IMG/VR virus record: IMGVR_UViG_2778261510_000012
Source: a virus
Lineage: Duplodnaviria; Heunggongvirae; Uroviricota; Caudoviricetes
Strand: one strand, 5' to 3'
DNA: 22,380 nt
Part shown: in pieces, positions 6,509 through 22,380 of the stretch
Numbering within the stretch: the stretch's first letter is position 1
How the letters are laid out: every line of letters starts with the position of its first letter
Position numbers and translations under genes: made by a program
The notes under the pieces: generated by a model
The model's input: only the letters and a program-made list of their open reading frames with translations
Databases searched by the model: none
Told to the model about the DNA's origin: nothing

Positions 6509-6509
6509 A

Positions 6510-6665: not shown

Positions 6666-6746
6666 GTTGACCTCATTTCCCCTTAACGCCGGGGTAGCGG
6701 AACAAAAACCTGCTGCATAGTTATTAAAGTTGAACCCTGCCGTCAT

Positions 6747-8340: not shown

Positions 8341-8411
8341 CTGACAATAGCCATATCGAATCGCTTCCGGCAACTCGTGAGTAAAAAGATTCGGTATCAG
8401 AAGAGGTGAGT

Positions 8412-9482
8412 ATGGCTAACGCCTGGCTCAGATTATGGCATGACATGCCAAATGACCCTAAGTGGCGAACAATTGCCAGGGTGTCAGGGCAGCCAATTGC
8501 AACAGTGATGGCAGTGTATATCCACCTCCTGGTGAGCGCGTCACGAAATGTCACGCGAGGTCACATTGATGTCACGACAGAAGATTTGGCAAGTGCGCTC
8601 GACGTGACAGAAGAGGTAATTGATTCAATTTTGCAGACGATGCAGGGGCGGGTACTTGATGGTGATTTAATCACTGGATGGGAAAAACGCCAGGTGCTTA
8701 AAGAGGACAACGGCAATATTTCGCAAACCGCAAAATCTCCTGCAGAGCGCAAGAGGGCGCAGCGAGAGAGGGAAAGAAAGCGGGAACAAAATGGCGATTG
8801 TCACGGCGCGTCACGAAATGTCACGCACATGTCACGACGAGTCACGACAGATAAAGATACAGATAAAGATACAGATCAAGAAGATCAAAACACTATGGTC
8901 CATGGCGTAAAAAACGCCACGAACCAGGCAGGGGATGTTCAGACCGTCAATCTTGGTCAGCCAGCAGGCACGACACCGGAAGCCGATTCAGCGTATGCGC
9001 TGAAAGCCGATTCGGGCGCTGTGCAGCAGGTGATGACCGCAAGGCCGGAGCAATCACACCAACTGCAGCAGCCTGAAGCCGATTCCGCCATTCAGCGGGA
9101 AGCCGATCGGGTAGTCCCGGAAAACACCGGGCAGCCTGTGGGACGAGTAGATTATCCGGATGTGTTCGAACAGGTCTGGCGGGAATACCCGTTGCGTGCT
9201 GGGGCAAACCCGAAGAAATCCGCTTTCAGTGCTTGGAAGGCCAGATTACGCGAGGGGGTGTCACCAGAGGCCATGCTGGATGGCGTGAGGCGTTACGCAA
9301 GATACCTTGCGGCTACCGGGAAAACGGGAACGGAATTTGTTCAGCGAGCGACGACGTTTTTTGGACCGGACCGGAATTTTGAAAACCCCTGGCTGCTCCC
9401 GGTAAGCGGCACGAACAACCAGCGTTGTGTGAATCATATTTCTGAACCGGATACCGAAATTCCACCGGGCTTCAGGGGGTAA
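8412..9482 (+). CDS. Replication initiation protein (phage replisome-organiser N-terminal domain type) with internal iterons
   Basis: First ATG at 8412 with RBS AGAGGTGAG; N-terminus WLRLWHDMPNDPKWRTIA fits the replisome-organiser N-domain pattern; C-terminal FEQVWREYPLRAGANPKKSAFSAWKARL motif common in phage replication initiators; iteron clusters inside the gene. Confidence 0.7.
   Translation: MANAWLRLWHDMPNDPKWRTIARVSGQPIATVMAVYIHLLVSASRNVTRGHIDVTTEDLASALDVTEEVIDSILQTMQGRVLDGDLITGWEKRQVLKEDNGNISQTAKSPAERKRAQRERERKREQNGDCHGASRNVTHMSRRVTTDKDTDKDTDQEDQNTMVHGVKNATNQAGDVQTVNLGQPAGTTPEADSAYALKADSGAVQQVMTARPEQSHQLQQPEADSAIQREADRVVPENTGQPVGRVDYPDVFEQVWREYPLRAGANPKKSAFSAWKARLREGVSPEAMLDGVRRYARYLAATGKTGTEFVQRATTFFGPDRNFENPWLLPVSGTNNQRCVNHISEPDTEIPPGFRG
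8540..8608. repeat. Iteron cluster 1 (GTCACG repeats with helical spacing)
   Basis: GTCACG/GTCACA at 8540, 8550, 8560 and 8571 (spacing 10, 10, 11 bp) plus an inverted CGTGAC at 8603. Confidence 0.55.
8800..8880. repeat. Iteron cluster 2 plus AT-rich tandem repeat (putative origin core)
   Basis: GTCACG at 8800, 8810, 8820, 8831 and 8841 (spacing 10, 10, 11, 10 bp), followed by a tandem GATAAAGATACA x2 A+T-rich stretch (8850-8873). Confidence 0.55.
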
Positions 9483-9522
9483 GTGTTGATTTCTGGTCAT
9501 GAGGTAATTTTCAGGAGGACTT

Positions 9523-9945
9523 GTGGCAAAAGTTTTTACACAAGAAGAGCGAGAAAAAATTAAAGGGCAGGTTGTTGAACTCGTACGCCAGAGTGGGCGT
9601 GAGACGTTACGGCAACTGGAAGTCAAAACAGGTGCGACAAGATATCTGATGAGCGTTCTCGCAAGAGAGCTGGTTGCCAGCGGCGATGTATACAACTCTG
9701 GTTACGGGTTATTCCCGTCTGAACAGGCGCGTAAGGACTGGCAAAATGCCCGTAAAAAGCTCTCAAGGGCAAAGCTGAAGAAACCATCTGCGGTTGATTC
9801 GGACCTTATCTGGTCATTACCTGACGGAGAAATACGTCGCTACGACAGGCGTCAGAACATAATCTGTCGCGAGTGCCGGAAGAGTGAAGTTATGCAGCGC
9901 ATATTGTCGTTTTATCAGGGGGATGTTCGGTATTTATTGAAGTGA
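9523..9945 (+). CDS. Hypothetical 140-aa basic protein downstream of the replication initiator
   Basis: ORF with AGGAGG RBS and apparent GTG start; no recognisable motif; sits where lambdoid phages usually encode a helicase loader but is too small for one. Confidence 0.45.
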   Translation: MAKVFTQEEREKIKGQVVELVRQSGRETLRQLEVKTGATRYLMSVLARELVASGDVYNSGYGLFPSEQARKDWQNARKKLSRAKLKKPSAVDSDLIWSLPDGEIRRYDRRQNIICRECRKSEVMQRILSFYQGDVRYLLK

Positions 9946-10012
9946 CGAGATTCAAGTGCATTAGTTCAGATGCAAATTGACTTTTTGTGGCACAGGGTAG
10001 AGCTAGCGTGGT

Positions 10013-10038
10013 TGTCCGCTTTGTGCCAACAGCGGACA
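10013..10038. other. Inverted repeat / hairpin between convergent genes
   Basis: TGTCCGCT - 10 nt - AGCGGACA perfect 8-bp stem; no strong U-tract. Confidence 0.4.
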
Positions 10039-10091
10039 TTATAGATGGTATATGTAGAAAGTGAACATGCGTAGATTGTATGATTTAGCCG

Positions 10092-10316
10092 TCACTTAAT
10101 TATTGGATAACTCACACAAGTATGACCGTTGCTTATCGCATACATTTGGTTTCCCTTAAGATTTACAAATGGAAATGTCGTATACTCATAATTTATAGAG
10201 GTCATATTAAATGTAAGGAATTTATCTTCAAGTTCTAATTTTGTAGAGTGGGCAGGGTATGTTCCTTCATTTTTCATTGTGATAATAAAACCGATAGGGA
10301 AAAATGTAAAGCACAA
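10092..10316 (-). pseudogene. Probable frameshifted 3' portion of the HNH-like gene
   Basis: A +1-frame ORF overlaps the end of 10274..10900; a single-base insertion in the A5/T5 run at 10300-10304 would fuse both into one ~265-aa frame; the track start is TTG and the first ATG has no SD. Confidence 0.4.
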
Positions 10317-10900
10317 ATAAATGCCACATGTCCTTCGTTCATAAATGCTACACTTTGAGCGGATATGTGCATTCTGTGTGGGTAAAACCAGTAGTAAATA
10401 TCATGAGTTTCCTCAAAACTTGAATTTTTACCCAAAACATAATCCTTTAAAGGTGTATAGAAGGGGCTATCTACGGGTTCTTTTTTACAATCTTCAACTG
10501 AAGTTGCTGATAGCACGTGCCCAATCATAGCCTTAGTGAAAGATATGCTATCAAAAGGTATTCTAATGAATGGATATACATTCATACCATTCATATATCG
10601 CCTTAACTGTTCTTTAAAGGACTTTGTTACATTTTCAATTGCAACATCGAGCCCACCTAATACCTTATTGTTACAGTGGCTGCAAATGGTTCTGAAATAA
10701 GAGCCATTTTTAGCATTTAATGGTTTAACTGGTTCCTGAATACCAAAAAATTCGCTAACTGTTTTCTGCAAAACAGGGCCTAAGGTTATGGCGCACTTTG
10801 GAGGAACATGATCTTTTGTGAGCAAGCCATATTTCCCACAAATATTGCAATAACCTTCAGTAATGCCATTGTGCTTCCATCGTTCACTAATTTTCGTCAT
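10274..10900 (-). CDS. AT-rich cargo gene encoding a protein with an HNH-like Cys/His motif
   Basis: 208 aa; RBS GAGGGA; CNICGKYGLLTKDHVPPK (CxxC-x9-DH) and CSHCNNK motifs resemble the zinc-bound HNH fold with an unusually long spacer; low GC relative to flanks. Confidence 0.6.
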   Translation of the reverse strand: MTKISERWKHNGITEGYCNICGKYGLLTKDHVPPKCAITLGPVLQKTVSEFFGIQEPVKPLNAKNGSYFRTICSHCNNKVLGGLDVAIENVTKSFKEQLRRYMNGMNVYPFIRIPFDSISFTKAMIGHVLSATSVEDCKKEPVDSPFYTPLKDYVLGKNSSFEETHDIYYWFYPHRMHISAQSVAFMNEGHVAFICALHFSLSVLLSQ

Positions 10901-11524
10901 TTTTATTCCCTCAGTAGCATAAGCTATCTATACGTTTTTTAATCCTATCAAAGATACAACTTAACGTCAGGAAAATGATAGTGTTTATCTAAGTAATACA
11001 ATTAACTTCAACGCGTGACAGTCTGCTTTTCGCTCAAAGCGGACTAGAAGGTTAGCTTGCGTCGGACTTGGCGTATTTAAAGAAGTGCTGGTGGTGACTG
11101 GTTGTTGTGTTCCATTTCTACAGAACAAAATCACAGAAACTATACCCAATAGTTGTATTGAATCACTGACGAGACAGCCTCATATTTATCAGGACTGGTG
11201 TACGTCCAATACAGGAGGTTGTGGTGCTGGTTCTCAAATGTGCGCTGGCTATTGCTGCTGTAATGGCAATTTATTGCCTTGCTGTTGTTCTTATGGATCG
11301 CCTTTCTGACTGATTTCATATTGGCGAGGTAACGGGAGTTAAGTAGAATGGCTGCGGGTGCTTGAGGCTATCTGTCTCAGGCATGAACACCAAAGGCAGA
11401 TAGAGAAAAGCCCCAGTTAACATTACGCGTCCTGCAAGACGCTTAACATTAATCTGAGGCCATATCTATGCTCTACACACATAGGTTAGCCTCTTACGTG
11501 CCGAAAGGCAAGGAGGAGCAGTCT

Positions 11525-11680
11525 ATGAAGCAGCAAAAGGCGATGTTAATCGCCCTGATCGTCATCTGTTTAACCGTCATAGTGACGGCACTGGTAACGA
11601 GGAAAGACCTCTGCGAGGTACGAATCCGAACCGGCCAGACGGAGGTCGCTGTCTTCACAGCTTACGAACCTGAGGAGTAA
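11525..11680 (+). CDS. hokD: Hok-family type I toxin (HokD/RelF-like)
   Basis: 51-aa translation MKQQKAMLIALIVICLTVIVTALVTRKDLCEVRIRTGQTEVAVFTAYEPEE matches HokD/RelF as I recall it; AGGAGG RBS 8 nt upstream; the track ORF from 11468 is an in-frame extension. Confidence 0.85.
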   Translation: MKQQKAMLIALIVICLTVIVTALVTRKDLCEVRIRTGQTEVAVFTAYEPEE

Positions 11681-11750
11681 GAGACCTGGCGGGGGAGAAA
11701 TCCCTCGCCACCTCTGATGTGTCAGGCATCCTCAACGCACCCGCACTTAA

Positions 11751-11768
11751 CCCGCTTCGGCGTTTTTT
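11751..11768 (+). terminator. Weak terminator-like hairpin after hok
   Basis: CCCGCTTCGGCG with TTCG loop followed by TTTTTT; the stem is short. Confidence 0.35.
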
Positions 11769-11823
11769 CCGTTGATTAACTCTAGTTATTAGAGAACCGA
11801 ACTTTTATTGATGGGGCAGGGAG

Positions 11824-12216
11824 ATGAAGAAACTTGTTTTAGTCGTAGGTGTAATGATTGCAACAGTAATGTTGGGAGGGTGTGCAGCAAAGGTCGATCC
11901 AGCGTTGAAAGCAGAAGCAATGAAGCCACTAACATGTAAAGATGAAAAGCAATGTGACTTTTATTGGAAACGAGCGCAATTCTGGTTGGCTAATAATTCC
12001 TCATGGAAAATTCAAACGGCGACAAACACGCTAATTTCCACTTATAACCCTTCACCAAATAGCCCATTCCTCGCTTATCAAGTGAGTAAAATGCCAAATG
12101 AAGATGGATCCGCAAGAATTTTCATCAAGCCTTTTTGCGATAATATGTTTGGCTGTCAACCAAACCCCTATCAGGCAATTGTTTCCTTTAAAAACTTCGT
12201 TAAAACTGGGCAGTAA
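11824..12216 (+). CDS. Putative lipoprotein (130 aa)
   Basis: Signal peptide with lipobox-like LGGC (MKKLVLVVGVMIATVMLGGCAAK); RBS GGGCAGGGAG; four further Cys in the mature part. Confidence 0.6.
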   Translation: MKKLVLVVGVMIATVMLGGCAAKVDPALKAEAMKPLTCKDEKQCDFYWKRAQFWLANNSSWKIQTATNTLISTYNPSPNSPFLAYQVSKMPNEDGSARIFIKPFCDNMFGCQPNPYQAIVSFKNFVKTGQ

Positions 12217-12346
12217 TGTATAGCGGGACGGTAAATTATTAGTGAAAACGCTGTAAATCCTATGGGTTGAGTCAGGATTTAATCCGATAATTATTCTATC
12301 GTTCCTTTACAAGTCCGGCATATTACCTTCAGTTTGTTTTAGCATA

Positions 12347-12372
12347 CCCGCTTCGGCGGGTTTTGTTTTTTT
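12347..12372 (+). terminator. Rho-independent terminator after lipoprotein gene
   Basis: CCCGC-TTCG-GCGGG stem-loop followed by TTTTGTTTTTTT. Confidence 0.65.
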
Positions 12373-12443
12373 CTGGCATTCTGGTTTACAATACGCACGC
12401 CAGCCTGAACAACTGGCACCTGCTGCGCCAGCAGAGACAACCG

Positions 12444-12722
12444 ATGGCGCACGATACCAAATTACACAATTCTAATGATTCTGCCGTCTTTGCCAGCAGG
12501 CGCGGACGGCGTTTTCACGTATTCAAATCAGACTGGTTCCAGCATCCTCCATGCACTGAAGAGCAGGCGGAATGGATAATTCAGTGTTACCGCAGGCGCG
12601 GATACGAGGTTAAGAAAGCCCTCAGCCTCGATTATCGTCACTGGATAATCTATGTCAGGCTCCCTTATTCCGAACGCCCACCGCGCCCATCCCGCACATA
12701 CCAGCAACGGATCTGGAGGTAA
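12444..12722 (+). CDS. Hypothetical 92-aa protein translationally coupled to the DUF968 gene
   Basis: First ATG in the frame (the track ORF starts earlier on a non-ATG codon); ends TAA 1 nt before the GTG start of the next gene; weak RBS. Confidence 0.4.
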   Translation: MAHDTKLHNSNDSAVFASRRGRRFHVFKSDWFQHPPCTEEQAEWIIQCYRRRGYEVKKALSLDYRHWIIYVRLPYSERPPRPSRTYQQRIWR

Positions 12723-12723
12723 C

Positions 12724-13779
12724 GTGCGGATATTACTTCGACCTGTTCTGGTACCGGAACTTGGGCTGGTGGTCCTTAGGCCGGGCCGTGAATCCATGCA
12801 AGTATTTCATAACCCTCGAGTGCTGGTGGAGCCTGAACCGAAAAGCATGCGCGGTCTGCCGTCCGGAGTCGTCCCTGCCGCTCGCCAGCCGCTGGTGGAA
12901 GACAAAACATTGCTGCCGTTTTTCAGTAACGCACGGGTGATTCGTGCTGCTGGTGGTGCTGGTGCATTGTCTGACTGGCTGTTGCGCCATATTAAATCCT
13001 GCCAGTGGCCACACGGCGATTATCATCACAGCGAAACCGTCATTCACTGTTATGGTACCGGCGCAATGGTGTTGTGCTGGCACTGCGACAACCAGCTACG
13101 TGACCAGACATCCGAATCACTCGAGCAACTTGCTCATCAAAACCTGTCAGCATGGATGATTGACGTCATCGGTCACGCAATAAGCGGTACGCAGGAGCGT
13201 GAATTATCTTTGGCTGAATTATCCTGGTGGGCGGTCCGCAATCAGGTGGCGGACGCGCTACCGGAAGCGGTATTACGTCGTTCGCTGGGGTTGCGTGCGG
13301 AAAAAATCCGCTCAATGTACCGTGAAAGCGACATCGTGCCGGGAGAGCAGACCGCCACCAGCATACTGAAGCAGCGCACAAAAAATCTTGCGCCGCTGCC
13401 TCACGCCCACCAGCAAAACCCGCCACAGGAAAAGACGGTGGTAAGCATTGCCGTTGATCCGGAGTCACCGGCTCAGTATCTCCAGCGCCAGAAACCACAA
13501 CGGGAAGAGATGCCTGTATACACGCGCTGGGTAAAAACGCAGAAATGCATGACGTGCGGTAATCAGGCAGATGATCCGCATCACATCATTGGTCATGGAC
13601 TGGGAGGGATGGGAACAAAGGCTGATGATTTGTTTGTTATTCCGCTGTGCCGTAAATGTCATAACGAACTGCACGCCGGGGTAAAAGATTTTGAAGAAAA
13701 ACACGGCAGCCAGCTGTTGTTGCTGATTCGTTTTTTAATGCACGCGAGAAATTCGGGTGTCCTGAAGTGGAAAGCATGA
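12724..13779 (+). CDS. DUF968-family prophage protein (YdfU-like)
   Basis: 351 aa from the GTG at 12724 (GGAGG RBS 5 nt upstream); C-terminal CMTCGNQADDPHHIIGHGLGG...LCRKCHNELH Cys/His motif characteristic of DUF968 as I recall it; same position relative to hokD as ydfU in Qin. Confidence 0.7.
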   Translation: MRILLRPVLVPELGLVVLRPGRESMQVFHNPRVLVEPEPKSMRGLPSGVVPAARQPLVEDKTLLPFFSNARVIRAAGGAGALSDWLLRHIKSCQWPHGDYHHSETVIHCYGTGAMVLCWHCDNQLRDQTSESLEQLAHQNLSAWMIDVIGHAISGTQERELSLAELSWWAVRNQVADALPEAVLRRSLGLRAEKIRSMYRESDIVPGEQTATSILKQRTKNLAPLPHAHQQNPPQEKTVVSIAVDPESPAQYLQRQKPQREEMPVYTRWVKTQKCMTCGNQADDPHHIIGHGLGGMGTKADDLFVIPLCRKCHNELHAGVKDFEEKHGSQLLLLIRFLMHARNSGVLKWKA

Positions 13780-14145
13780 ATGACTGAACGCATAGAATTT
13801 GTTTTGCCTTACCCGCCGACGGTGAATACCTACTGGCGACGTCATGGCAATACGTATTTCATCTCGGAAGCCGGAAAGCGTTATCGCCGTGATGTGGCGC
13901 TAATTGTTCGCCAGCAGCGGCTGAAATTAAGCCTGTCCGGAAGGCTGGCGATAAAGATTATTGCAGAGCCACCGGATAAGCGCCGCCGCGACCTGGACAA
14001 TATCCTGAAGGCACCACTGGATGCGCTGACGCATGCCGGACTACTTATAGACGACGAGCAGTTTGATGAAATCAATATTGTGCGCGGTCAGCTCGTTCCT
14101 GGTGGGCGGCTGGGGATAAAAATCACAGAACTGGAGTGCGCATGA
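13780..14145 (+). CDS. rusA: Holliday junction resolvase RusA
   Basis: 121 aa; LPYPPTVNTYWRRHG...RRRDLDNILKAPLDALTHAGLLIDD...GGRLGIKITE aligns by eye with E. coli RusA including the catalytic acidic residues. Confidence 0.9.
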   Translation: MTERIEFVLPYPPTVNTYWRRHGNTYFISEAGKRYRRDVALIVRQQRLKLSLSGRLAIKIIAEPPDKRRRDLDNILKAPLDALTHAGLLIDDEQFDEINIVRGQLVPGGRLGIKITELECA

Positions 14146-14831
14146 ATAACCAGTATTTACAGTTTGTGCGTGAGCAGCTCATTATCGCCACCGCTGATTT
14201 GAGTGGGGCAACAAAAGGTCAGCTTGAAGCCTGGCAAGAGAATGCCATGTTCGATACAGGGCGTTACAGGCGAAAAAAAATCCGGTACCGCGATGAAGTG
14301 ACTGGAAAAATGATAACGCGGGATAATCCACCAATTCCGGGAAAGCAATCGCTGGCGAAGGGGACGTCAATTCCTCTGGTCAGTCCGGTTGAGTTTTCGA
14401 CATCATCGTGGCGGCGGGCTGTTCTGTCTCTTGAAGAACATCATAAAGCCTGGTTGTTGTGGTGTTACAGCGGGAGTATTTGTTGGGAATATCAGATCGC
14501 GATAACACAGTGGGCGTGGAATGAATTTAATACTCAATCCGGTACCAGAAAAATTGCAGGGAAAACGCAGGAACGCCTGAAAAAATTAATCTGGCTGGCG
14601 GCGCAGGCAGTAAAAGCAGAACTTTTTGGTGGGGAAGGTTATGAATACCAGGAGCTGGCATTACTGGCGGGAGTGACAACTAAAAACTGGTCCAAAACAT
14701 TTACTCGTCACTGGGTTGCAATGAAACACATTTTTTACCGACTGGATAGTGGGGCTTTATTGTTTGTAATGAGAACGCGTTCAAAACAAAAGGCGGCATT
14801 TTCAAAGCAAAGTGTTGCAAAAGTAGATTGA
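14142..14831 (+). CDS. Putative late-gene regulator (Q-like antiterminator by position)
   Basis: 229 aa from the ATG overlapping the rusA stop (ATGA); sits immediately upstream of a promoter-like sequence, a short terminated leader and the tRNA/lysis region; family not confirmed. Confidence 0.45.
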   Translation: MNNQYLQFVREQLIIATADLSGATKGQLEAWQENAMFDTGRYRRKKIRYRDEVTGKMITRDNPPIPGKQSLAKGTSIPLVSPVEFSTSSWRRAVLSLEEHHKAWLLWCYSGSICWEYQIAITQWAWNEFNTQSGTRKIAGKTQERLKKLIWLAAQAVKAELFGGEGYEYQELALLAGVTTKNWSKTFTRHWVAMKHIFYRLDSGALLFVMRTRSKQKAAFSKQSVAKVD

Positions 14832-14843
14832 AAGGCATATATT
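14815..14843 (+). promoter_or_regulatory. Candidate late promoter (pR'-like)
   Basis: TTGCAA (14815-14820), 17-bp spacer, TATATT (14838-14843), about 50 nt upstream of a terminator; positional analogy to lambda pR'/tR'. Confidence 0.3.
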
Positions 14844-14894
14844 TCATGCAAATCTGATATTTTGCCGATTTTGTACGTGATGGCAAAAGCAAAC

Positions 14895-14920
14895 AAAACC
14901 CGCCGAAATGCGGGTTTTTT
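14895..14920 (+). terminator. Rho-independent terminator (tR'-like)
   Basis: AAAACCCGC-CGAAAT-GCGGGTTTTTT stem-loop with U-tract. Confidence 0.6.
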
Positions 14921-15040
14921 GTGCCACTTATCTCGGATAGACATGGTGAATGCGCTGGTGGAGGAAGTAAGGGGGATTTTTAACCAGGTGATTTTTGAAT
15001 GCTTGCAACATTGATTTTGTAACGTTATTATCCTGCGCCC

Positions 15041-15115
15041 GGCCCTTTAGCTCAGTGGTGAGAGCGAGCGACTCATAATCGCCAGGTCGCTGGTTCAAAT
15101 CCAGCAAGGGCCACC
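15041..15115 (+). tRNA. tRNA with CAU anticodon, tRNA-Ile2 (lysidine)-like
   Basis: 75-nt cloverleaf: acceptor GGCCCTT/AAGGGCC, D-arm GCTC-AGTGGTGA-GAGC, anticodon loop CTCATAA, T-arm GCTGG-TTCAAAT-CCAGC, 3' ACCA; closely parallels E. coli tRNA-Ile2; Met cannot be excluded from sequence alone. Confidence 0.85.
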
Positions 15116-15118
15116 ATT

Positions 15119-15195
15119 CCGCCACCAGCTCATCTGGATAGAGCATCAGCCTTCTAAGTTGATTGTGCGAGGTTCGAGCACCCGGTGGCGGACCA
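15119..15195 (+). tRNA. tRNA-like sequence with Arg (UCU) anticodon loop, probably degenerate
   Basis: D-arm GCTC-ATCTGGATA-GAGC and anticodon arm TCAGC-CTTCTAA-GTTGA are canonical and the 3' end is ACCA, but the acceptor stem has one mismatch, position 8 is C, and the T-stem pairs at only 3 of 5 positions. Confidence 0.4.
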
Positions 15196-16131
15196 TTCCA
15201 TGCAAGTTTAGCTGGCAGCGCTATTAGCTCGGCGTAATAGGGCTATTCGTCAGGCCCTGTTAGTTCACTATATTGCGTCAAAGCTTTTCTATCAACGATA
15301 CAATTAACGTTAAACGTTACAAAAACCACTGCTGATGTAATTCTTGCGCTCCGTTGTTCCCGGAGTATTTCCTGTTATTTATTGCGACAACGGAATTGGT
15401 TTGTTCCCAAACTGATCATGTTTGTGTTATTTTTTAGCAATCTCTTGCGTAAAATCAGAATTCTGGATGAAATAAAGTAATTTGTATTTATCTGATACAT
15501 ATTTATACACATATTAAAATCTTAAAACCAATTATTTTTTGATGTCATATGATTTATCGGTAATATTACTCCCGACCCAAAAGGCAGCGAGTCTGTGTTC
15601 ACTGGCGCATGACCAGCTGCCTCGCGGGTCATTGCTGGCATCCGTTTAATCATATTGTTATAGTATCATTACTGTGGTTACGGAGGCCCGCTCTATATAC
15701 AGGTATCGTACAGTGGCTATTACTTCAGCCTTTTAGGTTAGTGATACTGGTTCGATTCCTGTTCTCCGTACCTTCATTGTTCTTTGATGAGTTTTTACAG
15801 CACTGGCGTTTTTTGTGAGGAACAGATCTCGTTAATTCCTTTGTTGGGCCTCATTCTGTAATGGAGATCGGTTACGGATTCAGTGCTGTATTTTTTTATG
15901 ACACAGAAATGGCGCATTGCCCACGACAGGAAGCCGGATTTAGCGTTGAGTAACCAGTGATGCGCTTCTCTGTGTTGAAAAACATGAATTGGGGCGTTCC
16001 TCAGCGCGAGGGTGGTTTATAGAGTCGGTTTAGCGGGAAACCACAGTATCCATACAGCACGGAATACTTCGGGAGGCACCCGGCGCCTCGGTTTAATAAC
16101 AATTAAAAAATTCATCCCTTGCATTGACCAA

Positions 16132-16156
16132 CCGCCATATCTGGCGGTTTTTTTTA
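16132..16156 (+). terminator. Rho-independent terminator in the late-region spacer
   Basis: CCGCCATATCTGGCGG hairpin followed by TTTTTTTTT. Confidence 0.55.
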
Positions 16157-16482
16157 TTCCTTTCTCAGGACAAAAAAAGACACGAGCATCCAGGAATACT
16201 CGTGGGACAACGTCCTTTAGATAGCAATTTGCGAGAGGGTAAAAAGTAGCGCGGTCGTCGGATTAAGACCGCGGGACAAAGTCCATGAAGAATAATAAGT
16301 ATTGGCCCCCTTCCGGGGACATGTTCATACTACTAAGCTTCAGAAGTGGTTTAAATCCTCAAATTAACCTTAATTTTCGGTAAGTCTTATTTCATTTCTT
16401 TGCGCCACATCTGGTGCGCATCAAATAACGCCACACAAAGGGCATCTGCGGATGCCGGTGCTTTTGACGGGGTGTTTTTTAC

Positions 16483-16505
16483 GGGCCGCTGGTGGCCCTT
16501 TTTTA
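16483..16505 (+). terminator. Terminator-like hairpin just upstream of the lysis cassette
   Basis: GGGCC-GCTGGT-GGCCC followed by TTTTTTAT; preceded by a second hairpin GCATC-TGCG-GATGC. Confidence 0.45.
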
Positions 16506-16522
16506 TTTACAGGAGAAAAAGT

Positions 16523-16915
16523 ATGTCTGAACCCTTATCCGGTTCCGGCACGGCTGCGGCGCTCGGTGGAGCGACGGTATTCGGGCTGTTTACCGGAACG
16601 GATTTCGGGATTGTGTTTGGTGCGTTCGCCGGGGCGTTATTTGTGGCAACGATGCCGCAGGCGCTTTCAGCCTGGCGTGTGGTGGCGCATTTTCTTGTGT
16701 CGTTCATTATCGGCGTGCTGGGCGCAGAGGTTCTGGCGTCCTGGCTGGTAAAGCATACAGGGTTTGACGGTGCACCTGTTGACGCATTGTGTGCAGTACT
16801 GGTGTCAGTGGTGTCGGTAAAGATTCTGTCGTTCATCCACCAGCAGGATATTGCATCACTGGTGTCCGGCCTGTTCTCCCGCCTGCGGGGCGGAGGAGGC
16901 GGCAATGTTAAATAA
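16523..16915 (+). CDS. Holin-like membrane protein
   Basis: 130 aa from the ATG at 16523 (AGGAG RBS); Gly/Ala-rich hydrophobic helices; first gene of the lysis cassette. Confidence 0.5.
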   Translation: MSEPLSGSGTAAALGGATVFGLFTGTDFGIVFGAFAGALFVATMPQALSAWRVVAHFLVSFIIGVLGAEVLASWLVKHTGFDGAPVDALCAVLVSVVSVKILSFIHQQDIASLVSGLFSRLRGGGGGNVK

Positions 16916-17180
16916 CCTTCCCGGATTGCTGAATGTGGCGTTGTGCTCGTTTATCGTGCCGACGCTCTTTTTTTATCGCCGTCGTGACTCCAGACACAAA
17001 CCGCTGATGTCATGGCTGGCCTGGTTGTTGATGACGGTATATGCGCTTCCGCCACTTGCCTTTCTCTGTGGCACCATTCTTCCCGGTAACTGGCTGGTCG
17101 TGTTTTTTAATCTGTTGTTCTGCGTACTGGTAATACGCGCACGCGGGAACGTCACAAAAATCTTTCCATTGTTGAGGTGA
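16905..17180 (+). CDS. Small membrane protein (second holin or antiholin candidate)
   Basis: 91 aa with 2-3 hydrophobic segments; overlaps the end of the holin-like gene and abuts the endolysin start. Confidence 0.4.
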   Translation: MLNNLPGLLNVALCSFIVPTLFFYRRRDSRHKPLMSWLAWLLMTVYALPPLAFLCGTILPGNWLVVFFNLLFCVLVIRARGNVTKIFPLLR

Positions 17181-17182
17181 AT

Positions 17183-17560
17183 ATGTCGGGTAAATTCAGA
17201 TTTAGTCGTCGCAGCGAAAAGAATCTGGAGGGCGTCAAACCACAGCTGGTTGCCGTGGTTCGCCGTGCGCTGGAGCTGACGGAGGTTGATTTCGGTATTA
17301 CGGAAGGCCTGCGCACGAAAGAACGCCAGAAACAGCTGGTTGCAGAAGGCAAGAGCCAGACCATGAACAGTCGTCACCTGACCGGTGATGCGGTGGATGT
17401 TGTGGCTTACGTTGGCAGCCAGGTGTCATGGGACTGGGCTCTGTACGAGAAAATCGCGCAGGCATTTAAGCAGGCTGCCGCAGAGCTGGGAACTGCCATC
17501 GAATGGGGCGGGGACTGGAAAACACTGAAAGACGGGCCTCACTTTCAGTTGAAACGCTGA
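17183..17560 (+). CDS. Endolysin, peptidase M15 family (L-alanyl-D-glutamate endopeptidase-like)
   Basis: 125 aa; GLRTKERQ...SRHLTGDAVDV...GGDW...GPHFQL matches the His/Asp zinc-binding pattern of M15 endolysins; RBS GAGGTG. Confidence 0.8.
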   Translation: MSGKFRFSRRSEKNLEGVKPQLVAVVRRALELTEVDFGITEGLRTKERQKQLVAEGKSQTMNSRHLTGDAVDVVAYVGSQVSWDWALYEKIAQAFKQAAAELGTAIEWGGDWKTLKDGPHFQLKR

Positions 17561-17574
17561 TAACCAGGTGTGTT

Positions 17575-17757
17575 ATGAGCAGAAAACACTGGACACACAG
17601 AATGCCACGAGTGGCGGCGAAATGGGCACTGGTAGCGATACTGGTGCCTTTTTTCTTGGCGGGATGCGTCAGCCTGGATAAGGCGCGTCAGCTTTTCGAT
17701 ACAGCTTCTCAGGTCTGCGAAATTGTTGATAGTGTCCGGCAGTGTCTGCAGAACTGA
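17575..17757 (+). CDS. Small lipoprotein (outer-membrane spanin-like candidate)
   Basis: 60 aa with signal peptide and lipobox FLAGC immediately after the endolysin; not proline-rich like lambda Rz1, so the assignment is positional. Confidence 0.4.
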   Translation: MSRKHWTHRMPRVAAKWALVAILVPFFLAGCVSLDKARQLFDTASQVCEIVDSVRQCLQN

Positions 17758-17799
17758 CCGACGGTGAGAGCAGAATATTTTTTAGCGGAGCGAAATTCT

Positions 17800-18150
17800 A
17801 TGCCATCACAAATCCCCCGCGCCTGCCGTAAGCGTGGATGTGCAGGTACAACCACAGACAGTTCTGGTTACTGCGATAAACATCGTGGCGAAGGATGGGT
17901 ACAGCATCAGCGCGGACTGAGCCGCCACCAGCGTGGCTATGGCTCGAAATGGGATGCCATACGTGCGCGCATACTGAAGCGTGATAATCATCTGTGTCAG
18001 AACTGCATGCGCAATGGGAGAGCCGTTGAAGCCAGAACTGTGGACCACATCATTCCGAAAGCTCATGGTGGCACGGATGCAGACAGTAACCTGCAGAGTC
18101 TGTGCTGCCCCTGTCATAAAGCAAAAACAGCGCGCGAACGCATCAATTGA
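17800..18150 (+). CDS. HNH endonuclease (terminase-associated)
   Basis: 116 aa from the ATG at 17800; CxxC...DHIIPKAHGG...NLQSLCCPCHKAK is the classic HNH motif; directly upstream of the small terminase. Confidence 0.85.
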   Translation: MPSQIPRACRKRGCAGTTTDSSGYCDKHRGEGWVQHQRGLSRHQRGYGSKWDAIRARILKRDNHLCQNCMRNGRAVEARTVDHIIPKAHGGTDADSNLQSLCCPCHKAKTARERIN

Positions 18151-18298
18151 TAACAGTTCCCGTCTGTAGGGGAGGGGCGGGTCAAATCTCTGCAGCCCTG
18201 GCTGCTCAGTACCGCCGCCTGACCCTTCCTCACATCGCCGCAGGTTCGAAAACTTTTTTTTGGGAATGTGATTAAATGATTGATAGGTAAAACCGATT

Positions 18299-18781
18299 AT
18301 GTCAGGACCCCCGAAAACCCCGCCACGCCTGCATTTGATACGAGGCAACCCCTCAAAGCGCCCCGTTAAAGACCCAAAAAAAACCGCTAAAAAGGATGAA
18401 AAAGGTCTCCCTAAAATTCCGCAACATTTAGGGTCGCAGGGGAAGTACTGGTTCAGGCGAATGGCGGAAGAACTGAATGCGGAAGGGATCATTTCTCAGC
18501 TTGATGCGCGTGCACTCGAGTTACTGGTGGAAGCCTACACCGAATACCGGCATCACTGCGAAACACTTGATGCTGAGGGTTATACCTACCGCACGGAAAC
18601 GCAGAACGGTGATGTGCTGATTAAGGCACACCCGGCTGCTGCGATGAAAGCGGATGCCTGGAAGCGGATCCGGGCGATGCTTGCAGAGTTTGGTATGTCA
18701 CCGGCAAGCCGGGCGAAAGTAAATACCGCCGGACCGGATGATGTTGATCCGCTGGCGGAACTTTTAAAAGCGAGAGACTGA
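18299..18781 (+). CDS. Terminase small subunit (P27-family-like)
   Basis: 160 aa; basic N-terminus, conserved LDARALELLVEAY...AEFGMSPASRAK pattern; stop overlaps the large-subunit start. Confidence 0.8.
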   Translation: MSGPPKTPPRLHLIRGNPSKRPVKDPKKTAKKDEKGLPKIPQHLGSQGKYWFRRMAEELNAEGIISQLDARALELLVEAYTEYRHHCETLDAEGYTYRTETQNGDVLIKAHPAAAMKADAWKRIRAMLAEFGMSPASRAKVNTAGPDDVDPLAELLKARD

Positions 18782-19974
18782 TGGCAAAAGTGGCTGACGG
18801 GATCCGCTACGCCGAACGTGTTGTTGCAGGAGAAATTGTCGCTGGCGAATTTGTCCGTCTGGCCTGCCAGCGTTTTCTTGATGATCTGAAGTACGGCGAA
18901 GAGCGGGGGATTTATTTCAGTGAACCCCGTGCGCAGCACATCCTGAATTTCTACAAATTTGTGCCTCATGTAAAAGGGGCGCTGGCAGGCCAGCCTATTG
19001 AGTTGATGGACTGGCATGTATTTATCCTCATTAATATTTTTGGTTTTGTCATTCCGCTGGTCAATGAAGAGACCGGGGAAGTTGTCATGCGCAGCGATGG
19101 CAGCGGACGTCCGGTGATGGTGCGCCGGTTCCGGACGGCGTACAACGAAGTCGCCCGTAAAAACGCAAAATCAACCCTGTCATCGGGTATCGGTCTGTAT
19201 ATGACGGGGGCAGATGGTGAAGGCGGTGCTGAGGTGTATTCAGCCGCAACTACGCGTGACCAGGCCAGAATCGTGTTTGAAGACGCCAAAAATATGGTCA
19301 GAAAAGCCCGGTCGACACTCGGGCGGTTGTTTGATTTCAACAAGCTGGCGATTTACCAGGAGCAGAGCGCATCAAAATTTGAACCGCTTTCTTCGGATGC
19401 AAACAACCTGGATGGTCTGAACATCCACTGCGCCATTATTGATGAGCTGCATGCACATAAAACCCGTGACGTGTGGGACGTTCTGGAAACGGCAACCGGT
19501 GCCCGTCTGCAGTCCCTTTTATTTGGTATCACCACGGCAGGGTTTAACAAGGAAGGGATTTGTTACGAGCAGCGTGATTACGCCATCAAGGTATTGCGTG
19601 GCTATAACAGCGACGTGGAGGGCGCGGTAAAAGACGACTCCTACTTTGCGATTATTTACACCCTCGATGAGGGAGATGATCCGTTTGATGAAACGGTCTG
19701 GCAGAAAGCGAATCCCGGCCTGGGCATCTGTAAACGCTGGGATGATCTGCGTCGCCTGGCGAAAAAAGCGAAAGAACAGGTCTCTGCGCGGGTGAATTTT
19801 TTTACCAAGAACGTAACATCACGCCGTAACAACAGTGCGGCCTGTCCTGATTTTTTTAGTAACCAAATGAAAGAAAAAGATTTTTTCTTGTTCGTCGTTT
19901 TTGTTTTTTCTGGAAGGTTCTGGCTGTTTTCATCATTTGTGTATTGCACTGTGTATTGCAAAAACGGGTTATAA
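18781..19974 (+). pseudogene. Terminase large subunit, 3'-truncated (ATPase region only)
   Basis: About 340 aa of terminase-like sequence, then the frame runs into AT-rich low-complexity codons (FFTKNVTSRRNNSAACPDFFSNQMKEKDFFLFVVFVF...) and stops; the nuclease domain expected in a ~550-aa protein is missing. Confidence 0.75.
19938..19960. repeat. Tandem direct repeat TGTGTATTGCA x2 upstream of the P4-type integrase
   Basis: TGTGTATTGCA at 19938-19948 and 19950-19960, about 20 bp before the int start. Confidence 0.6.
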
Positions 19975-19979
19975 ATCAC

Positions 19980-21203
19980 ATGGCGCTAAACAAACTGAGC
20001 GATAAAAAACTTCGTTCCCTGCTTGGGCGCAGGAGTGAGAGGCAGGAAACCATCGCTGATGGTAACGGGCTTTCGGTACGGGTCAGTAAATACGGATGTG
20101 TTAGTTTTGTTTTCTTTTACAGACTGGCGGGAAGGGGAACCGCGCCCATCTGGCTGACACTTGGAAAATATCCTGATCTGAGTCTCAAATCAGCGAGAGA
20201 GATGCGCGATCAGTGTCGAACCTGGCTTGCGGAGGGCAGAGATCCACGGATTCAGATAAAAATTGAACGGGAAGCCACCTTGCAACCTGTTACCGTTCGT
20301 GAGGCGCTTGAATACTGGCTTGATAATTATGCAATGGATAAGCGTAGGGGAGCAGAACATATCAGGCAGTGCTTTGGTAAACATATTTATCCGGTGATTG
20401 GTCATGTACCACTTAGTGATTGCTCAATATCTATGTGGATCAAGTGCTTTGACAAAATAAAAAAAGTAGCACCTGTACAGGCCGGAGCTTTATTGCGTAT
20501 ATCAAAACAGGCGCTTAAATTTTGTCGGGTAAGAAAATACGCGATTAGTCATGAAATTGATGATCTTGAGGTCTGTGATGTGGGAAAAAAGTCTGCGCGA
20601 AGAAGCAGGGTTTTAACAGATGATGAAATCAGAGATTTATGGCGAAGTATTAATACTGATTATGACAATCACGAATTATCATATGAAAACCGAATTATTT
20701 TACGTTTCCTGGTAGTTTTTGGTTGCCGACTGTCAGAAGTATTACTGTCCTCCTGGGGAGAGTGGGATTTTGATAAGAAATTATGGCGCGTTCCCGCTGA
20801 TCATAGCAAAAATGGCAGGGAAATAATCAGACCGATTCCTGATGGCATGTTTAACTGGTTAGTTACGTTAAAAAAAATAACAGGTAACAAAGAAAATGTG
20901 ATTGGGTTTGATATGCGTCAGTGTACGGCAAGCGTAACTATCGGTAAGACATGGAAAAGGATGAAACACTCGGAGAAATGGACGGCGCATGATATGCGAA
21001 GAGTGTTTGCCACAAAGCTAAGTGATCATGGTTTTGAACATAATGTGGTTGAACAGTTGCTTGGGCACACATTAGGCGGTGTTGCCGGGGTTTATAACAG
21101 AAGCCAGTATATGGACAGAAAAAAAGAAGCTATGAACTGGTGGTACGACTACCTGAATAAGCTAATTAGTGGTGATGGTAATGATTCAAATAGTTACGCG
21201 TGA
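19980..21203 (+). CDS. Tyrosine integrase, P4 type
   Basis: 407 aa from the ATG at 19980; N-terminus MALNKLSDKKLRSLLG...GNGLSVRVSKYGCVSFVFFYRLAGRG...LGKYPDLSLKSAREMRDQ matches the P4-integrase arm-binding region; C-terminal HDMRRVFAT...LLGHT...YNR catalytic motifs. Confidence 0.9.
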   Translation: MALNKLSDKKLRSLLGRRSERQETIADGNGLSVRVSKYGCVSFVFFYRLAGRGTAPIWLTLGKYPDLSLKSAREMRDQCRTWLAEGRDPRIQIKIEREATLQPVTVREALEYWLDNYAMDKRRGAEHIRQCFGKHIYPVIGHVPLSDCSISMWIKCFDKIKKVAPVQAGALLRISKQALKFCRVRKYAISHEIDDLEVCDVGKKSARRSRVLTDDEIRDLWRSINTDYDNHELSYENRIILRFLVVFGCRLSEVLLSSWGEWDFDKKLWRVPADHSKNGREIIRPIPDGMFNWLVTLKKITGNKENVIGFDMRQCTASVTIGKTWKRMKHSEKWTAHDMRRVFATKLSDHGFEHNVVEQLLGHTLGGVAGVYNRSQYMDRKKEAMNWWYDYLNKLISGDGNDSNSYA

Positions 21204-21402
21204 AGAACTTGAAAATGATAAAACAATCGACAGGATGATTAAGGAAGATGAATGTGCATGGTTAACTGCTCTTGGCAGGAGACACAGATCGTTACTTGAA
21301 AAGGAAGGAAAATTTCCACGAAAAATATGTATTGGCCCACAAACAAAAGTCTGGCGCTTATCTGAGGTGCTGGAATGGGTAAAGGGTGAATGGAAACCCT
21401 GA
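21181..21402 (+). CDS. alpA: AlpA-family transcriptional regulator
   Basis: 73 aa; WLTALGRRHRSLLEKEGKFPRKICIGPQTKVWRLSEVLEWV fits the AlpA HTH pattern; start overlaps the int 3' end (alternative ATG at 21175). Confidence 0.7.
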   Translation: MIQIVTREELENDKTIDRMIKEDECAWLTALGRRHRSLLEKEGKFPRKICIGPQTKVWRLSEVLEWVKGEWKP

Positions 21403-21425
21403 GCTAAATTAAATGAGATATAATC

Positions 21426-21450
21426 AACCCGTCTTTTGGCGGGTTTTTTT
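21426..21450 (+). terminator. Rho-independent terminator after alpA
   Basis: AACCCG-TCTTTTGG-CGGGTT followed by TTTTT. Confidence 0.5.
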
Positions 21451-21465
21451 ATAGGTGATATTTTT

Positions 21466-21744
21466 ATGCAAAAATTTATTTATCCTACACCCGAAGAACG
21501 CATTCAGATTCTGAAAGAGCATGGCGAACCGTATGATCGCCGTATACGCGAACATGAGTGTGCCAATCGTACCGGGCTTTCAAGAAGCAGACGTTGGGTA
21601 CTTGAACAGGAGGGAGCATTTCCTGCTCGTGCTCATTTAGGGAAAGTGTCTGTTTCCTGGTTGCTCTCTGATGTGCTCTGGTGGGTTATGCATCCGCCAG
21701 GAGTAAAGGAAGTAAACAGCCCATACAAAAACGCCAATAAGTAA
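21466..21744 (+). CDS. Second AlpA-like small DNA-binding protein
   Basis: 92 aa from the ATG at 21466; ECANRTGLSRSRRWVLEQEGAFPARAHLGKVSVSWLLSDVLWWV resembles the AlpA/HTH_17 pattern. Confidence 0.5.
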   Translation: MQKFIYPTPEERIQILKEHGEPYDRRIREHECANRTGLSRSRRWVLEQEGAFPARAHLGKVSVSWLLSDVLWWVMHPPGVKEVNSPYKNANK

Positions 21745-21754
21745 TTACCGACAA

Positions 21755-21782
21755 CCCCGCACCACGCAATGCGGGGTTTTTT
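21755..21782 (+). terminator. Rho-independent terminator
   Basis: CCCCGCA-CCACGCAA-TGCGGGG followed by TTTTTT. Confidence 0.6.
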
Positions 21783-21801
21783 GTATGTGAGGTAGAAAGC
21801 G

Positions 21802-22380
21802 ATGAATAAAAATATTGCCGTGACGGGCAAGGGTGACGCACGTCATGTGAAAAAATTCTGTGATATTCGTGATCTGGTCGTTCTGCGCTTTGATGGTGTG
21901 AACGTTCGCGTGGTGTATCTGAACGGCGATCCGTGGTTTGTTGCAAAGGATGTTTGCGCTGCGCTGGAACTGACCAATTCGCGTACGGCGTTGCAGATGC
22001 TTGATGATGATGAAAAGGGAGTAAATTTAACTTACACCCCCGGAGGAAATCAGAATATGAGCATTATCTCTGAGTCAGGTTTCTACAAACTAATAGCCCG
22101 CAGCCGCAAAGCAACGACGCCTGGCACATTTGCTCATCGTTTCAGTAACTGGGTATTCAGGAATGTGATACCAGGTATCAGAAAGACAGGGGCTTATGGT
22201 ATCCCGTGGGGCGCATTGCAGGATTTTTCCCGCCGTAAAGAGCAATATCAAATAAGTGCCAGTGAGAAGGGGAGGGAGCTACAGGCCTGTAAGCGCAAAA
22301 AGCGTGAACTGGAGGAAGAAGAAAAAAGGCTGATACGTGAATATCAGCCTGAGTTTTACTTTGACAACTGCATTCAGTGA
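21802..22380 (+). CDS. Bro-N domain protein (antirepressor-like)
   Basis: 192 aa; FDGVNVRVVYLNGDPWFVAKDVCAALELTNSRTALQMLDDDEKG matches the Bro-N pattern; charged coiled-coil-like C-terminus. Confidence 0.65.
   Translation: MNKNIAVTGKGDARHVKKFCDIRDLVVLRFDGVNVRVVYLNGDPWFVAKDVCAALELTNSRTALQMLDDDEKGVNLTYTPGGNQNMSIISESGFYKLIARSRKATTPGTFAHRFSNWVFRNVIPGIRKTGAYGIPWGALQDFSRRKEQYQISASEKGRELQACKRKKRELEEEEKRLIREYQPEFYFDNCIQ

Follow-up and report, generated by a model that had tools for sequence, protein, structure and literature searches.

The question raised by this locus is why a large terminase gene (terL) should run out into AT-rich DNA directly before the gene for a P4-type integrase. The DNA analysed (the window) is a stretch of 22,380 nt, and an earlier note on it proposed either that a satellite-like element had integrated into, or recombined with, the packaging gene of a helper prophage, or that a deletion had fused two elements, with an assembly artefact as a further possibility. 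The features around the junction are these (window coordinates):

17764..18150, + strand: HNH endonuclease gene of the helper prophage, partner of the P27/HK97-type terminase (Pfam HNH, E = 1.5e-15)
18299..18781, + strand: small terminase subunit gene (terS) of the helper, P27 family, Terminase_4 (Pfam Terminase_4, E = 4.5e-26; RefSeq concurs)
18781..19808, + strand: 5′ part of helper terL, codons 1-343, with the whole ATPase domain and the first ~60 nuclease-domain positions; B arm of attL (identity to the 585-aa TerL, Pfam, RefSeq)
19802..19808, + strand: attL crossover core TTACCAA, the identity block common to attR (identical 7-mer at attR, L001 37568-37574; published att identity 'ttaccaa')
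19809..19979, + strand: P′ arm of the satellite attachment site, 171 bp, 36.8 % G+C, with 54 terL-frame codons to the TAA at 19972-19974 (published attL match)
19938..19960, + strand: doubled motif TGTGTATTGCA-C-TGTGTATTGCA, presumably bound by the integrase arm domain or by AlpA (shuffle test, published spacing)
19980..21203, + strand: tyrosine integrase gene (int) of the satellite, 407 aa, P4-type architecture (Pfam Arm-DNA-bind_3 and Phage_integrase)

RefSeq places the start of the HNH endonuclease gene later (window 17800-18150).

The interrupted terL gene and its attachment sites

The terL ORF (18781-19974) encodes a protein of 397 aa with a complete TerL_ATPase domain (Pfam profile positions 16-176 of 178), followed by a match to only positions 2-65 of the 286 in TerL_nuclease, and RefSeq enters the 5′ part as a pseudogene with a missing C-terminus. 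The truncation described in the earlier note is confirmed by alignment to the intact protein, with 343 rather than about 340 matching residues: residues 1-343 are identical to a reconstituted 585-aa TerL, and the last 54 are encoded by satellite DNA. The codons beyond the junction are AT-rich, as had been reported, the 171 bp up to the int ATG having the low G+C content listed above against about 50-55 % in terS and terL. The stop at 19974 also stands, although five bases, and not six, separate it from the integrase ATG at 19980.

In Escherichia coli EC416, a near-identical genome with 100 % identity to the window over positions 18200-22380, the missing 3′ part of the gene is found 15,965 bp farther downstream. 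The 7-bp core TTACCAA is present at both junctions, 15,965 bp apart (attL in the window, attR in EC416), and a search inside the satellite found no further copy. When the EC416 flanks are joined they form a terL ORF of 585 aa, and a junction-spanning 809-nt piece of this joined gene matches uninterrupted terL alleles of many genomes at 100 % identity, with 905 E. coli genomes aligning in one piece over at least 80 % of it. The attB of the restored gene reads GTGAATTTTTTTACCAAACACATG.

This kind of arrangement has been described by Tommasini, Mageeney & Williams (NAR Genom Bioinform 2023; PMC10111431) as the class of helper-embedded phage-inducible chromosomal islands (helper-embedded PICIs, HE-PICIs), which includes a site group A:Terminase_1:246 with the core "ttaccaa" and helpers at potB. 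One listed element, Eco1645.15.A_Terminase_1_246 (helper Eco1645.57.potB, att identity 'ttaccaa'; PMC10111431), has a published attL of 163 nt that matches window positions 19745-19907 exactly and a published attR of 154 nt with an exact match in EC416. The designation 'Terminase_1 position 246' is not directly mappable, since the Pfam model is now split into TerL_ATPase and TerL_nuclease; the junction lies near TerL_nuclease position ~60, which is roughly consistent with Terminase_1:246, and the published att identity was used as the criterion. We assign a probability of about 0.93 to the reading that the window holds the attL of an HE-PICI of this site group, integrated in the co-oriented terL of a lambdoid prophage between potB and potC. 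The biology of such elements, down to this site and its att sequences, was published in 2023.

The doubled motif in the P′ arm fits the same class. It consists of two 11-bp units, TGTGTATTGCA, one base (C) apart, so that the tandem 11-bp repeat reported earlier at 19938-19960 is present but has a period of 12, with a one-base spacer, and is not directly tandem. The motif occurs once in the window and, even with three mismatches allowed, in none of 100 shuffles. The published HE-PICI signature is a doubled tgTGTATTGCantgTGTATTGCa occurring twice, at 81 ± 2 bp on the upstream and 132 ± 2 bp on the downstream side of the attP centre, and a doubled TGTATTGC motif is described for these elements by the same authors (PMC10111431). 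In the window the motif begins 133 bp downstream from the centre of the attL core, a second co-oriented copy in EC416 (L001 37470-37492) ends 79 bp upstream of the attR core centre, and the spacing in E. coli 042 is the same. We also considered the 11-bp repeat as the att core itself and rejected it, since its distance from the junctions is asymmetric at the two ends and it equals the published arm motif, the core being TTACCAA.

Of 5426 complete E. coli genomes, 36 have the junction of terS, the terL 5′ part and int, and 36 likewise have a full-length int gene; the junction is also present in dozens of draft assemblies listed by Tommasini et al. (PMC10111431). E. coli 042 has the same insertion in a different lambdoid backbone, where joining the flanks again restores a 585-aa TerL, and this points to independent site-specific integration.

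These observations bear on two other explanations of the locus. Deletion or illegitimate recombination could have fused a truncated prophage to an unrelated integrase island, with terL irreversibly lost and no right end to be found. The 22-kb window taken by itself, which shows the left junction only and a terL frame running into AT-rich DNA, would suit such an event, but the 7-bp core recurs immediately before the terL 3′ part, the two halves once joined match intact alleles at 100 % identity, and the same precise junctions recur in another prophage backbone and in the published att alignments. The fusion of two elements by deletion, one of the two origins first proposed, is refuted by attR and the exact reconstitution of terL, and we give it virtually no weight. 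A chimeric join of two prophage-like regions during assembly is just as improbable; prophage-rich E. coli genomes are indeed prone to mis-assembly at repeated phage modules, and the element does carry a second set of terS, terL, portal and capsid genes, but recurrence of the identical junction in 36 independent complete genomes, together with the published drafts (PMC10111431), rules it out. The satellite TerL moreover is only 31 % identical to the helper TerL at the protein level, so that no repeat-mediated mis-join would be expected, and it is without the core sequence. The integration of a satellite-like element into a helper packaging gene, the other origin put forward in the earlier note, is borne out by attR, the reconstituted terL and the gene content of the satellite.

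Gene content of the satellite and its relatives

The P4-type integrase recognized in the earlier note has the corresponding Arm-DNA-bind_3 and Phage_integrase architecture, and its motifs GCRLSE (residue 248), HDMRR (337), LGH (361) and GVY (370) fit the active site of tyrosine recombinases. A search of genome contigs with the integrase for related loci returned only two Xenorhabdus loci, at 66-67 % identity. The domain architecture, the att DNA identity to A_Terminase_1_246 and the equal counts of int genes and terL junctions argue indirectly that the protein belongs to the integrase clade of HE-PICIs, whose subclades correspond to the site groups and whose members target prophage late genes (PMC10111431). 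The expectation that a P4-type integrase should lie beside a tRNA or tmRNA gene is inapplicable to such a clade, although it is correct, as had been remarked, that none adjoins int here (none within 4.7 kb by ARAGORN and Rfam). The window has tRNA genes only at 15041-15195, where two carried by the phage lie downstream of Q, the antiterminator gene; a tRNA or tmRNA attachment site was rejected, since these genes of the phage itself lie ~4.8 kb upstream of the integrase and the att core is within terL. The remaining satellite features in the window are:

21169..21402, + strand: first AlpA-family gene (excisionase/regulator), overlapping the end of int (Pfam Phage_AlpA, E = 1.9e-9)
21426-21445: intrinsic-terminator-like hairpin after the first AlpA gene (terminator scan)
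21467..21744, + strand: second AlpA-family gene (Pfam Phage_AlpA, E = 7.2e-10 on ORF 21436-21744; RefSeq CDS 21466-21744)
21753-21778: terminator-like hairpin after the second AlpA gene (terminator scan)
21802..22380, + strand: gene for a Bro-N domain protein, forming the satellite 'Bro zone', with its stop codon at the end of the window (Pfam Bro-N, E = 5.6e-20)

The promoter and terminator scans are simple consensus matching; on the + strand between the terL 5′ part and int they gave neither a sigma-70-like promoter nor a good terminator-like hairpin, a result compatible with late-operon transcription reading through.

Beyond the window, the EC416 satellite continues with IS1414, an Icd-like gene, DUF4222, a DUF927 primase, SSB and ProQ, and then a late module of major capsid protein (MCP), protease, portal, connector, HNH, TerS and TerL genes, after which come attR and the helper terL 3′ part. 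Four zones thus succeed one another: Int with two AlpA genes, Bro-N, DUF4222/DUF927 primase/SSB, and the late module, all seven genes of which have Pfam matches, including Phage_capsid, Peptidase_S78, Phage_portal and Terminase_4. The annotation of EC416 has no tail, lysis or holin gene between attL and attR. The element lies between the 5′ and 3′ parts of terL with its int, alpA and primase genes on the same strand as terS and terL, and after the terL 3′ part come the portal, protease, MCP and tail genes of the prophage. The helper is a lambdoid prophage located between potB and potC, and the potB/potC island of ~56 kb is accordingly a nested composite of a ~40 kb helper and a ~16 kb satellite.

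With Eco1645.15.A_Terminase_1_246 the satellite shares its species, potB helper locus, terL target codon, core TTACCAA, doubled motif with its spacing, and the order of the zones (Int/AlpA, Bro, replication, late); at 15,965 bp the EC416 element is larger than the published one (14,645 bp), a difference that fits the annotated insertion of IS1414 after the Bro-N gene. The HE-PICI that has been studied by experiment, Eco567.11capE, lies in the lambda-E-like capsid gene of prophage 50icd (PMC10111431). It probably has an integrase of the same clade and has the doubled attP motif; it too is co-oriented in a helper late gene with no replacement sequence, so that the gene is restored only by excision. 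It differs in its target (capE), its 10-bp core block, its size (~11 kb) and its lack of terS, and is presumed to use the packaging machinery of the helper, whereas the satellite described here has its own TerS and TerL.

In its late module the satellite resembles the capsid-forming PICIs (cf-PICIs), elements that make small capsids themselves and draw just the tails from their helper, and of which EcCIEDL933 is the prototype (Alqurainy et al. 2023; 10.1101/2022.09.08.507074): it has its own MCP, prohead protease, portal, head-tail connector, HNH, TerS and TerL, while tail and lysis genes are absent. The cf-PICIs are described at chromosomal attB sites, a search criterion being that the sites are never occupied by prophages (10.1101/2022.09.08.507074), and searches of the cf-PICI papers turned up no mention of prophage-embedded integration. 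The present satellite lies instead within a prophage gene and has what is probably an HE-PICI-clade integrase; the site rule, however, is a criterion of the search and not a mechanistic requirement.

The satellite is like P4 in having a P4-type tyrosine integrase at its left end, an AlpA-like regulator and dependence on a helper. Satellite P4 integrates at a tRNA-Leu gene and remodels the capsids of its helper P2 with Sid and Psu, whereas here the att core is in terL, no tRNA gene lies within 4.7 kb of int, and capsid and terminase genes of its own are found in the element, with no detected Sid or Psu. No annotation or Pfam match to sid, psu, delta or epsilon was found among the satellite proteins, but five small ORFs match no family, so that such genes are probably, though not certainly, lacking. 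The earlier name 'P4-like element' is apt for the integrase clade only; in gene content the satellite is a PICI that has a capsid-forming module of its own.

Excision, helper packaging and the open terL frame

With the anatomy and the precise att sites of the element established, terL reconstituted, the insertion seen again in independent genomes and its att sequences matched to the published ones, the life cycle may be pictured as follows. The P4-clade tyrosine integrase recombined the 7-bp core TTACCAA of attP with helper terL at codons 341-343. Doubled TGTATTGC motifs, ~80 bp from the core on one side and ~132 bp on the other, presumably serve as arm-type protein-binding sites. While the satellite is integrated, the only TerL available from the helper is a fragment that has the ATPase domain but lacks most of the nuclease domain, and the helper cannot package its DNA. 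On induction the composite would excise and replicate, and Q-antiterminated late transcription would read from terS and the terL 5′ part straight into int and alpA, whose products, by extension to the terminase-site group, would excise the satellite precisely and give back an intact terL of 585 codons. This 'regulated gene integrity', in which terL is restored by excision, would be to the benefit of the satellite. Equipped with a capsid, protease, portal, connector, HNH, TerS and TerL of its own, the satellite would need little from the helper beyond tails and lysis, a form of tail piracy suggested by the literature. Induction-dependent excision has been shown experimentally only for the related capsid-gene element 11capE, excision following replication of the composite having been measured by qPCR and deep sequencing, and no virions were recovered by the authors even for the model composite (PMC10111431).

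The insertion in terL is precise and site-specific, and should be reversible by Int and AlpA. The packaging-defective state ascribed to the prophage in the earlier note thus applies while the satellite is integrated but not as a permanent condition, since precise excision would restore terL.

A curious feature of this group is that the interrupted terL frame remains open through the whole 171-bp P′ arm and stops 5 nt before the int ATG, which is without a strong Shine-Dalgarno sequence. The open frame is kept in the E. coli members examined (the window, L020 and L119) and would be expected in only about 3 % of shuffled arms. It might couple translation of Int, and hence excision, to late translation of the helper, or the resulting ATPase-only TerL fusion might block packaging by the helper or by superinfecting relatives, but both ideas seem improbable to us. 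Among 51 motif-plus-integrase loci taken from IMG/VR and GTDB, an open frame through the arm is absent in the capE group, where the interrupted frame stops at the core, in the portal and Terminase_1:132 groups, and in the Arsenophonus A_246 members, and for this reason the open frame is most likely incidental. A general HE-PICI design in which translation of int is coupled to that of the interrupted late gene was rejected, as most groups terminate at or near the core.

The element may also be a genuine HE-PICI that has reached a dead end, with helper and satellite decayed to a cryptic remnant and terL permanently interrupted in this strain. We consider this unlikely on balance, though a good deal less so than the explanations by fusion or mis-assembly. 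Several details in EC416 would accord with it: the genes for the side tail fibre and for tail-fibre assembly are entered as partial pseudogenes, a frameshift is flagged in cro, and the satellite has IS1414 after the Bro-N gene; many HE-PICI helpers, moreover, look truncated (PMC10111431). Yet int, both alpA genes, the replication module and the whole head and packaging module are intact ORFs, both att sites are intact and all four motif half-sites are kept, and in the helper the J-type tail module, Q, the lysis genes and the ORF of a 212-aa CI-like repressor are intact as well. The EC416 composite may be inactive now, but satellites of the HE-PICI kind could still be mobilized by an incoming helper.

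A helper-embedded satellite is a distinctive kind of molecular parasite that holds an essential late gene of its helper hostage and rides on helper replication and late transcription. The practical value of recognizing it lies in annotation, since a 'truncated terminase' of this type should not be scored as prophage decay. Where our description goes modestly beyond the wording of the published one is in noting that the terL-embedded group has a complete head and packaging module of the cf-PICI type, so that the insertion disables exactly the one helper function, DNA packaging, that the satellite itself can spare. This module is related to that of EDL933, the strain of the cf-PICI prototype, with ~83 % nucleotide identity to a region of its chromosome across 78 % of the module, and it is present in 174 complete genomes as against 36 for the integrase, which implies that the modules reassort.

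An element nested in terL

The ORF at 18781-19974 encodes 397 aa, and its N-terminal part is a P27/HK97-type large terminase, with the Pfam TerL_ATPase domain present in full and TerL_nuclease represented by positions 2-65 of 286 only. The 171 bp from 19809 to 19979 (the P′ arm, on the satellite side of attL) have a G+C content of 36.8 %, against ~50-55 % before the junction; the terL frame ends in a TAA at 19972-19974, and an integrase starts at 19980. The truncation before an integrase reported in the earlier note is thus confirmed, with minor corrections such as the number of residues (1-343) that the truncated ORF shares with a reconstituted 585-codon terL.

Window 18200-22380 is 100 % identical, and window 1-18000 99.8 % identical, to E. 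coli EC416 (NZ_AP027404.1), in which a lambdoid prophage (the helper) contains the inserted element (the satellite).

Gene order in E. coli EC416; the opposite prophage end adjoins potC
1. terL 5′ part, an annotated pseudogene with its C-terminus missing
2. int, two AlpA-family genes and a Bro-N gene
3. IS1414 copy
4. Icd-like gene, DUF4222, DUF927 primase, SSB and ProQ-like gene
5. Complete head and packaging module: Phage_capsid, Peptidase_S78 protease, Phage_portal, head-tail connector, HNH, Terminase_4 TerS and full TerL
6. Directly after the satellite TerL, 'TerL endonuclease subunit, missing N-terminus'
7. Portal, protease, capsid and lambda-like tail genes belonging to the prophage itself, ending at potB

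This order shows that what the window holds is the left junction between a prophage gene and an element inserted in it. TTACCAA is present at attL (19802-19808) and at attR (37568-37574 of L001, the EC416 locus extending past the right end of the window), a spacing of 15,965 bp, with no further copy within the element. Joining the flanks at TTACCAA yields the 585-codon terL, and the reconstructed uninterrupted site (809 nt) is 100 % identical to the intact terL of many E. coli. By sequence, integration was precise, brought no replacement sequence and thus split terL early in its nuclease domain; since the break lies ahead of the VGVDLA segment (residue 380 of the reconstituted TerL), the helper can make a TerL fragment only, for as long as the satellite stays integrated.

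The earlier note had weighed integration of a satellite into the helper's packaging gene against a deletion fusing two elements, and had proposed looking for repeats at both element ends and for strains lacking the insertion; both were found. The uninterrupted site occurs in one piece in 905 of 5426 complete E. coli genomes and the terL-integrase junction in 36 (a full-length integrase gene likewise in 36), which puts occupancy at ~4 % of this terL's alleles. E. coli 042 carries an insertion of 15,245 bp with the same core and motif spacing and a reconstituted TerL of 585 aa, in a lambdoid prophage whose Q and lysis genes are unlike those here, and this different backbone points to independent site-specific integration. 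A deletion is excluded by the core at both ends, the terL 3′ part and attR retained in EC416, joined flanks that match intact alleles, and the 042 insertion. An assembly artefact, also raised, is excluded by the 36 genomes with the junction, the reconstitution of terL and, again, the 042 insertion. Satellite integration is upheld by the core at both junctions, the restored reading frame and a match to published att sites.

Identity of the satellite and its integration zone

Helper-embedded PICIs (HE-PICIs) have integrases forming a clade within the P4/PICI group, four zones in the order Integration (Int, AlpA), Bro, Replication and Late, and a doubled motif, tgTGTATTGCantgTGTATTGCa, found twice per attP, 81 +/- 2 bp upstream and 132 +/- 2 bp downstream of its centre (Tommasini, Mageeney & Williams, 2023; PMC10111431). 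Their E. coli group A_Terminase_1_246 (supplementary table) has the att identity 'ttaccaa', elements of ~15 kb and helpers that include Eco1645.57.potB (PMC10111431). The published attL (163 nt) and attR (154 nt) of Eco1645.15.A_Terminase_1_246 match window 19745-19907 and L001 37516-37669 exactly, so the insertion has already been described; the satellite is evidently an instance of a known element at a known site, down to identical att sequences. The EC416 copy is 1,320 bp longer than the published 14,645 bp (PMC10111431), an excess for which the annotated IS1414 insertion fits. This IS256-like element lies at L001 24429-25637, straight after the Bro-N gene and just past the window's right end; at its position 042 has a partial hypothetical gene.

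The tandem repeat before int does comprise two 11-mers at 19938-19960, as previously noted, with one base between the units (TGTGTATTGCA-C-TGTGTATTGCA). The doubled motif was absent from 100 shuffles of the window with <=3 mismatches permitted. Its start is 133 bp downstream from the centre of the attL core, and another copy in the same orientation (L001 37470-37492) ends 79 bp upstream of that of the attR core; these distances led us to reject it as the att core.

The integrase (407 aa; Arm-DNA-bind_3 plus Phage_integrase) has GCRLSE, HDMRR, LGH and GVY motifs fitting the usual tyrosine-recombinase active site. For its 042 counterpart (15668-17005 of the 042 locus) RefSeq takes a start that lies in the P′ arm, 113 nt further upstream; the resulting 445 versus 407 aa is an annotation inconsistency between genomes. 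Integrases 66-67 % identical occur in Xenorhabdus hominickii and X. bakwenae; in the latter the doubled motif lies 40 bp upstream of int in a different core context (TTATACCTTATCTGAGC), probably another HE-PICI-type site. ARAGORN and Rfam found neither a tRNA nor a tmRNA close to the integrase, in agreement with the earlier reading; the sole tRNAs are phage-borne, downstream of the Q antiterminator gene, and unconnected with the integrase:
15041-15116, tRNA-Met (CAT) by ARAGORN, tRNA-Ile in RefSeq (presumably lysidine-modified Ile2)
15119-15195, tRNA-Arg (TCT)

When the P′ arm is shuffled by mononucleotides, a terL frame open to just before the int ATG arises in ~3 % of cases. Of 51 IMG/VR and GTDB loci in which an integrase ORF follows the doubled motif, those of the E. 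coli terL group alone have a stop at −5 relative to int, and one other group overlaps int; elsewhere the interrupted frame stops at the core, in the capE group in the capsid gene (−132), in further groups (−148 and −162) and in the Arsenophonus A_246 members (−111). Designed translational coupling as a general HE-PICI feature was therefore rejected, and the run of the terL frame on to int is probably incidental.

Late functions and state of the composite

The satellite carries its own TerS, TerL (31 % identical to the helper TerL), HNH, portal, protease and capsid genes, and no tail or lysis genes; with this complement it should behave like a capsid-forming PICI (cf-PICI), mainly needing helper tails. 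O157:H7 EDL933, the cf-PICI prototype's strain, has a region to which the satellite late module (L001 31032-37051) aligns over 78 % of its length at ~83 % identity. The module is present at >=80 % coverage in 174 complete E. coli genomes, versus 36 for the integrase, indicating that integration and late modules reassort; the same cf-PICI-type module is thus joined elsewhere to other integrases and att sites. Three short repeats based on GCGGGTTAT / TAACCCGC lie directly 3′ of the satellite terL and recur in inverted orientation ~100 bp on (L001 37127-37187 and 37262-37290), with two further tandem copies between the primase and SSB genes (L001 29400-29441); possible roles are as origin iterons or as packaging (cos/TerS) sites of the satellite.

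For a related capE element, the whole composite excises and replicates after mitomycin C and the satellite leaves later, restoring the late gene, which the authors term 'regulated gene integrity', serving the satellite (PMC10111431). Given this precedent and the precise insertion, the packaging defect proposed earlier is not supported as a permanent state of the prophage. Q-antiterminated late read-through would express int and alpA, and the scan fits this: it gave no good + strand terminator-like hairpin between the interrupted terL and int, no + strand sigma-70-like promoter in 18200-22380, and a strong terminator-like hairpin downstream of each alpA gene.

The composite may be cryptic in EC416. 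IS1414 interrupts the satellite, and in the helper the genes for the side tail fibre and tail-fibre assembly carry a partial-pseudogene annotation (13347-15945 of the EC416 locus near potB), other lambda-like tail genes (tape measure, L, J and others) being intact. A CI/LexA-type (S24) repressor ORF of 212 aa is open at 6958-7596 (−), but RefSeq has only a 339-nt 'LexA family protein' there in EC416, and the adjacent cro at 7688-7931 (+) is flagged as frameshifted, so that helper inducibility is uncertain. Despite these signs of decay, every late gene of the satellite is intact, as are int, the two alpA genes and the two att sites. Rfam also identifies a DicF sRNA at 5105-5156 (−), with dicB/ydfD-like genes beside it, and at 11356-11530 (+), beside hokD, a sok antitoxin RNA; DicF and sok-type RNAs are typical cargo of Qin/Rac-like lambdoid prophages.
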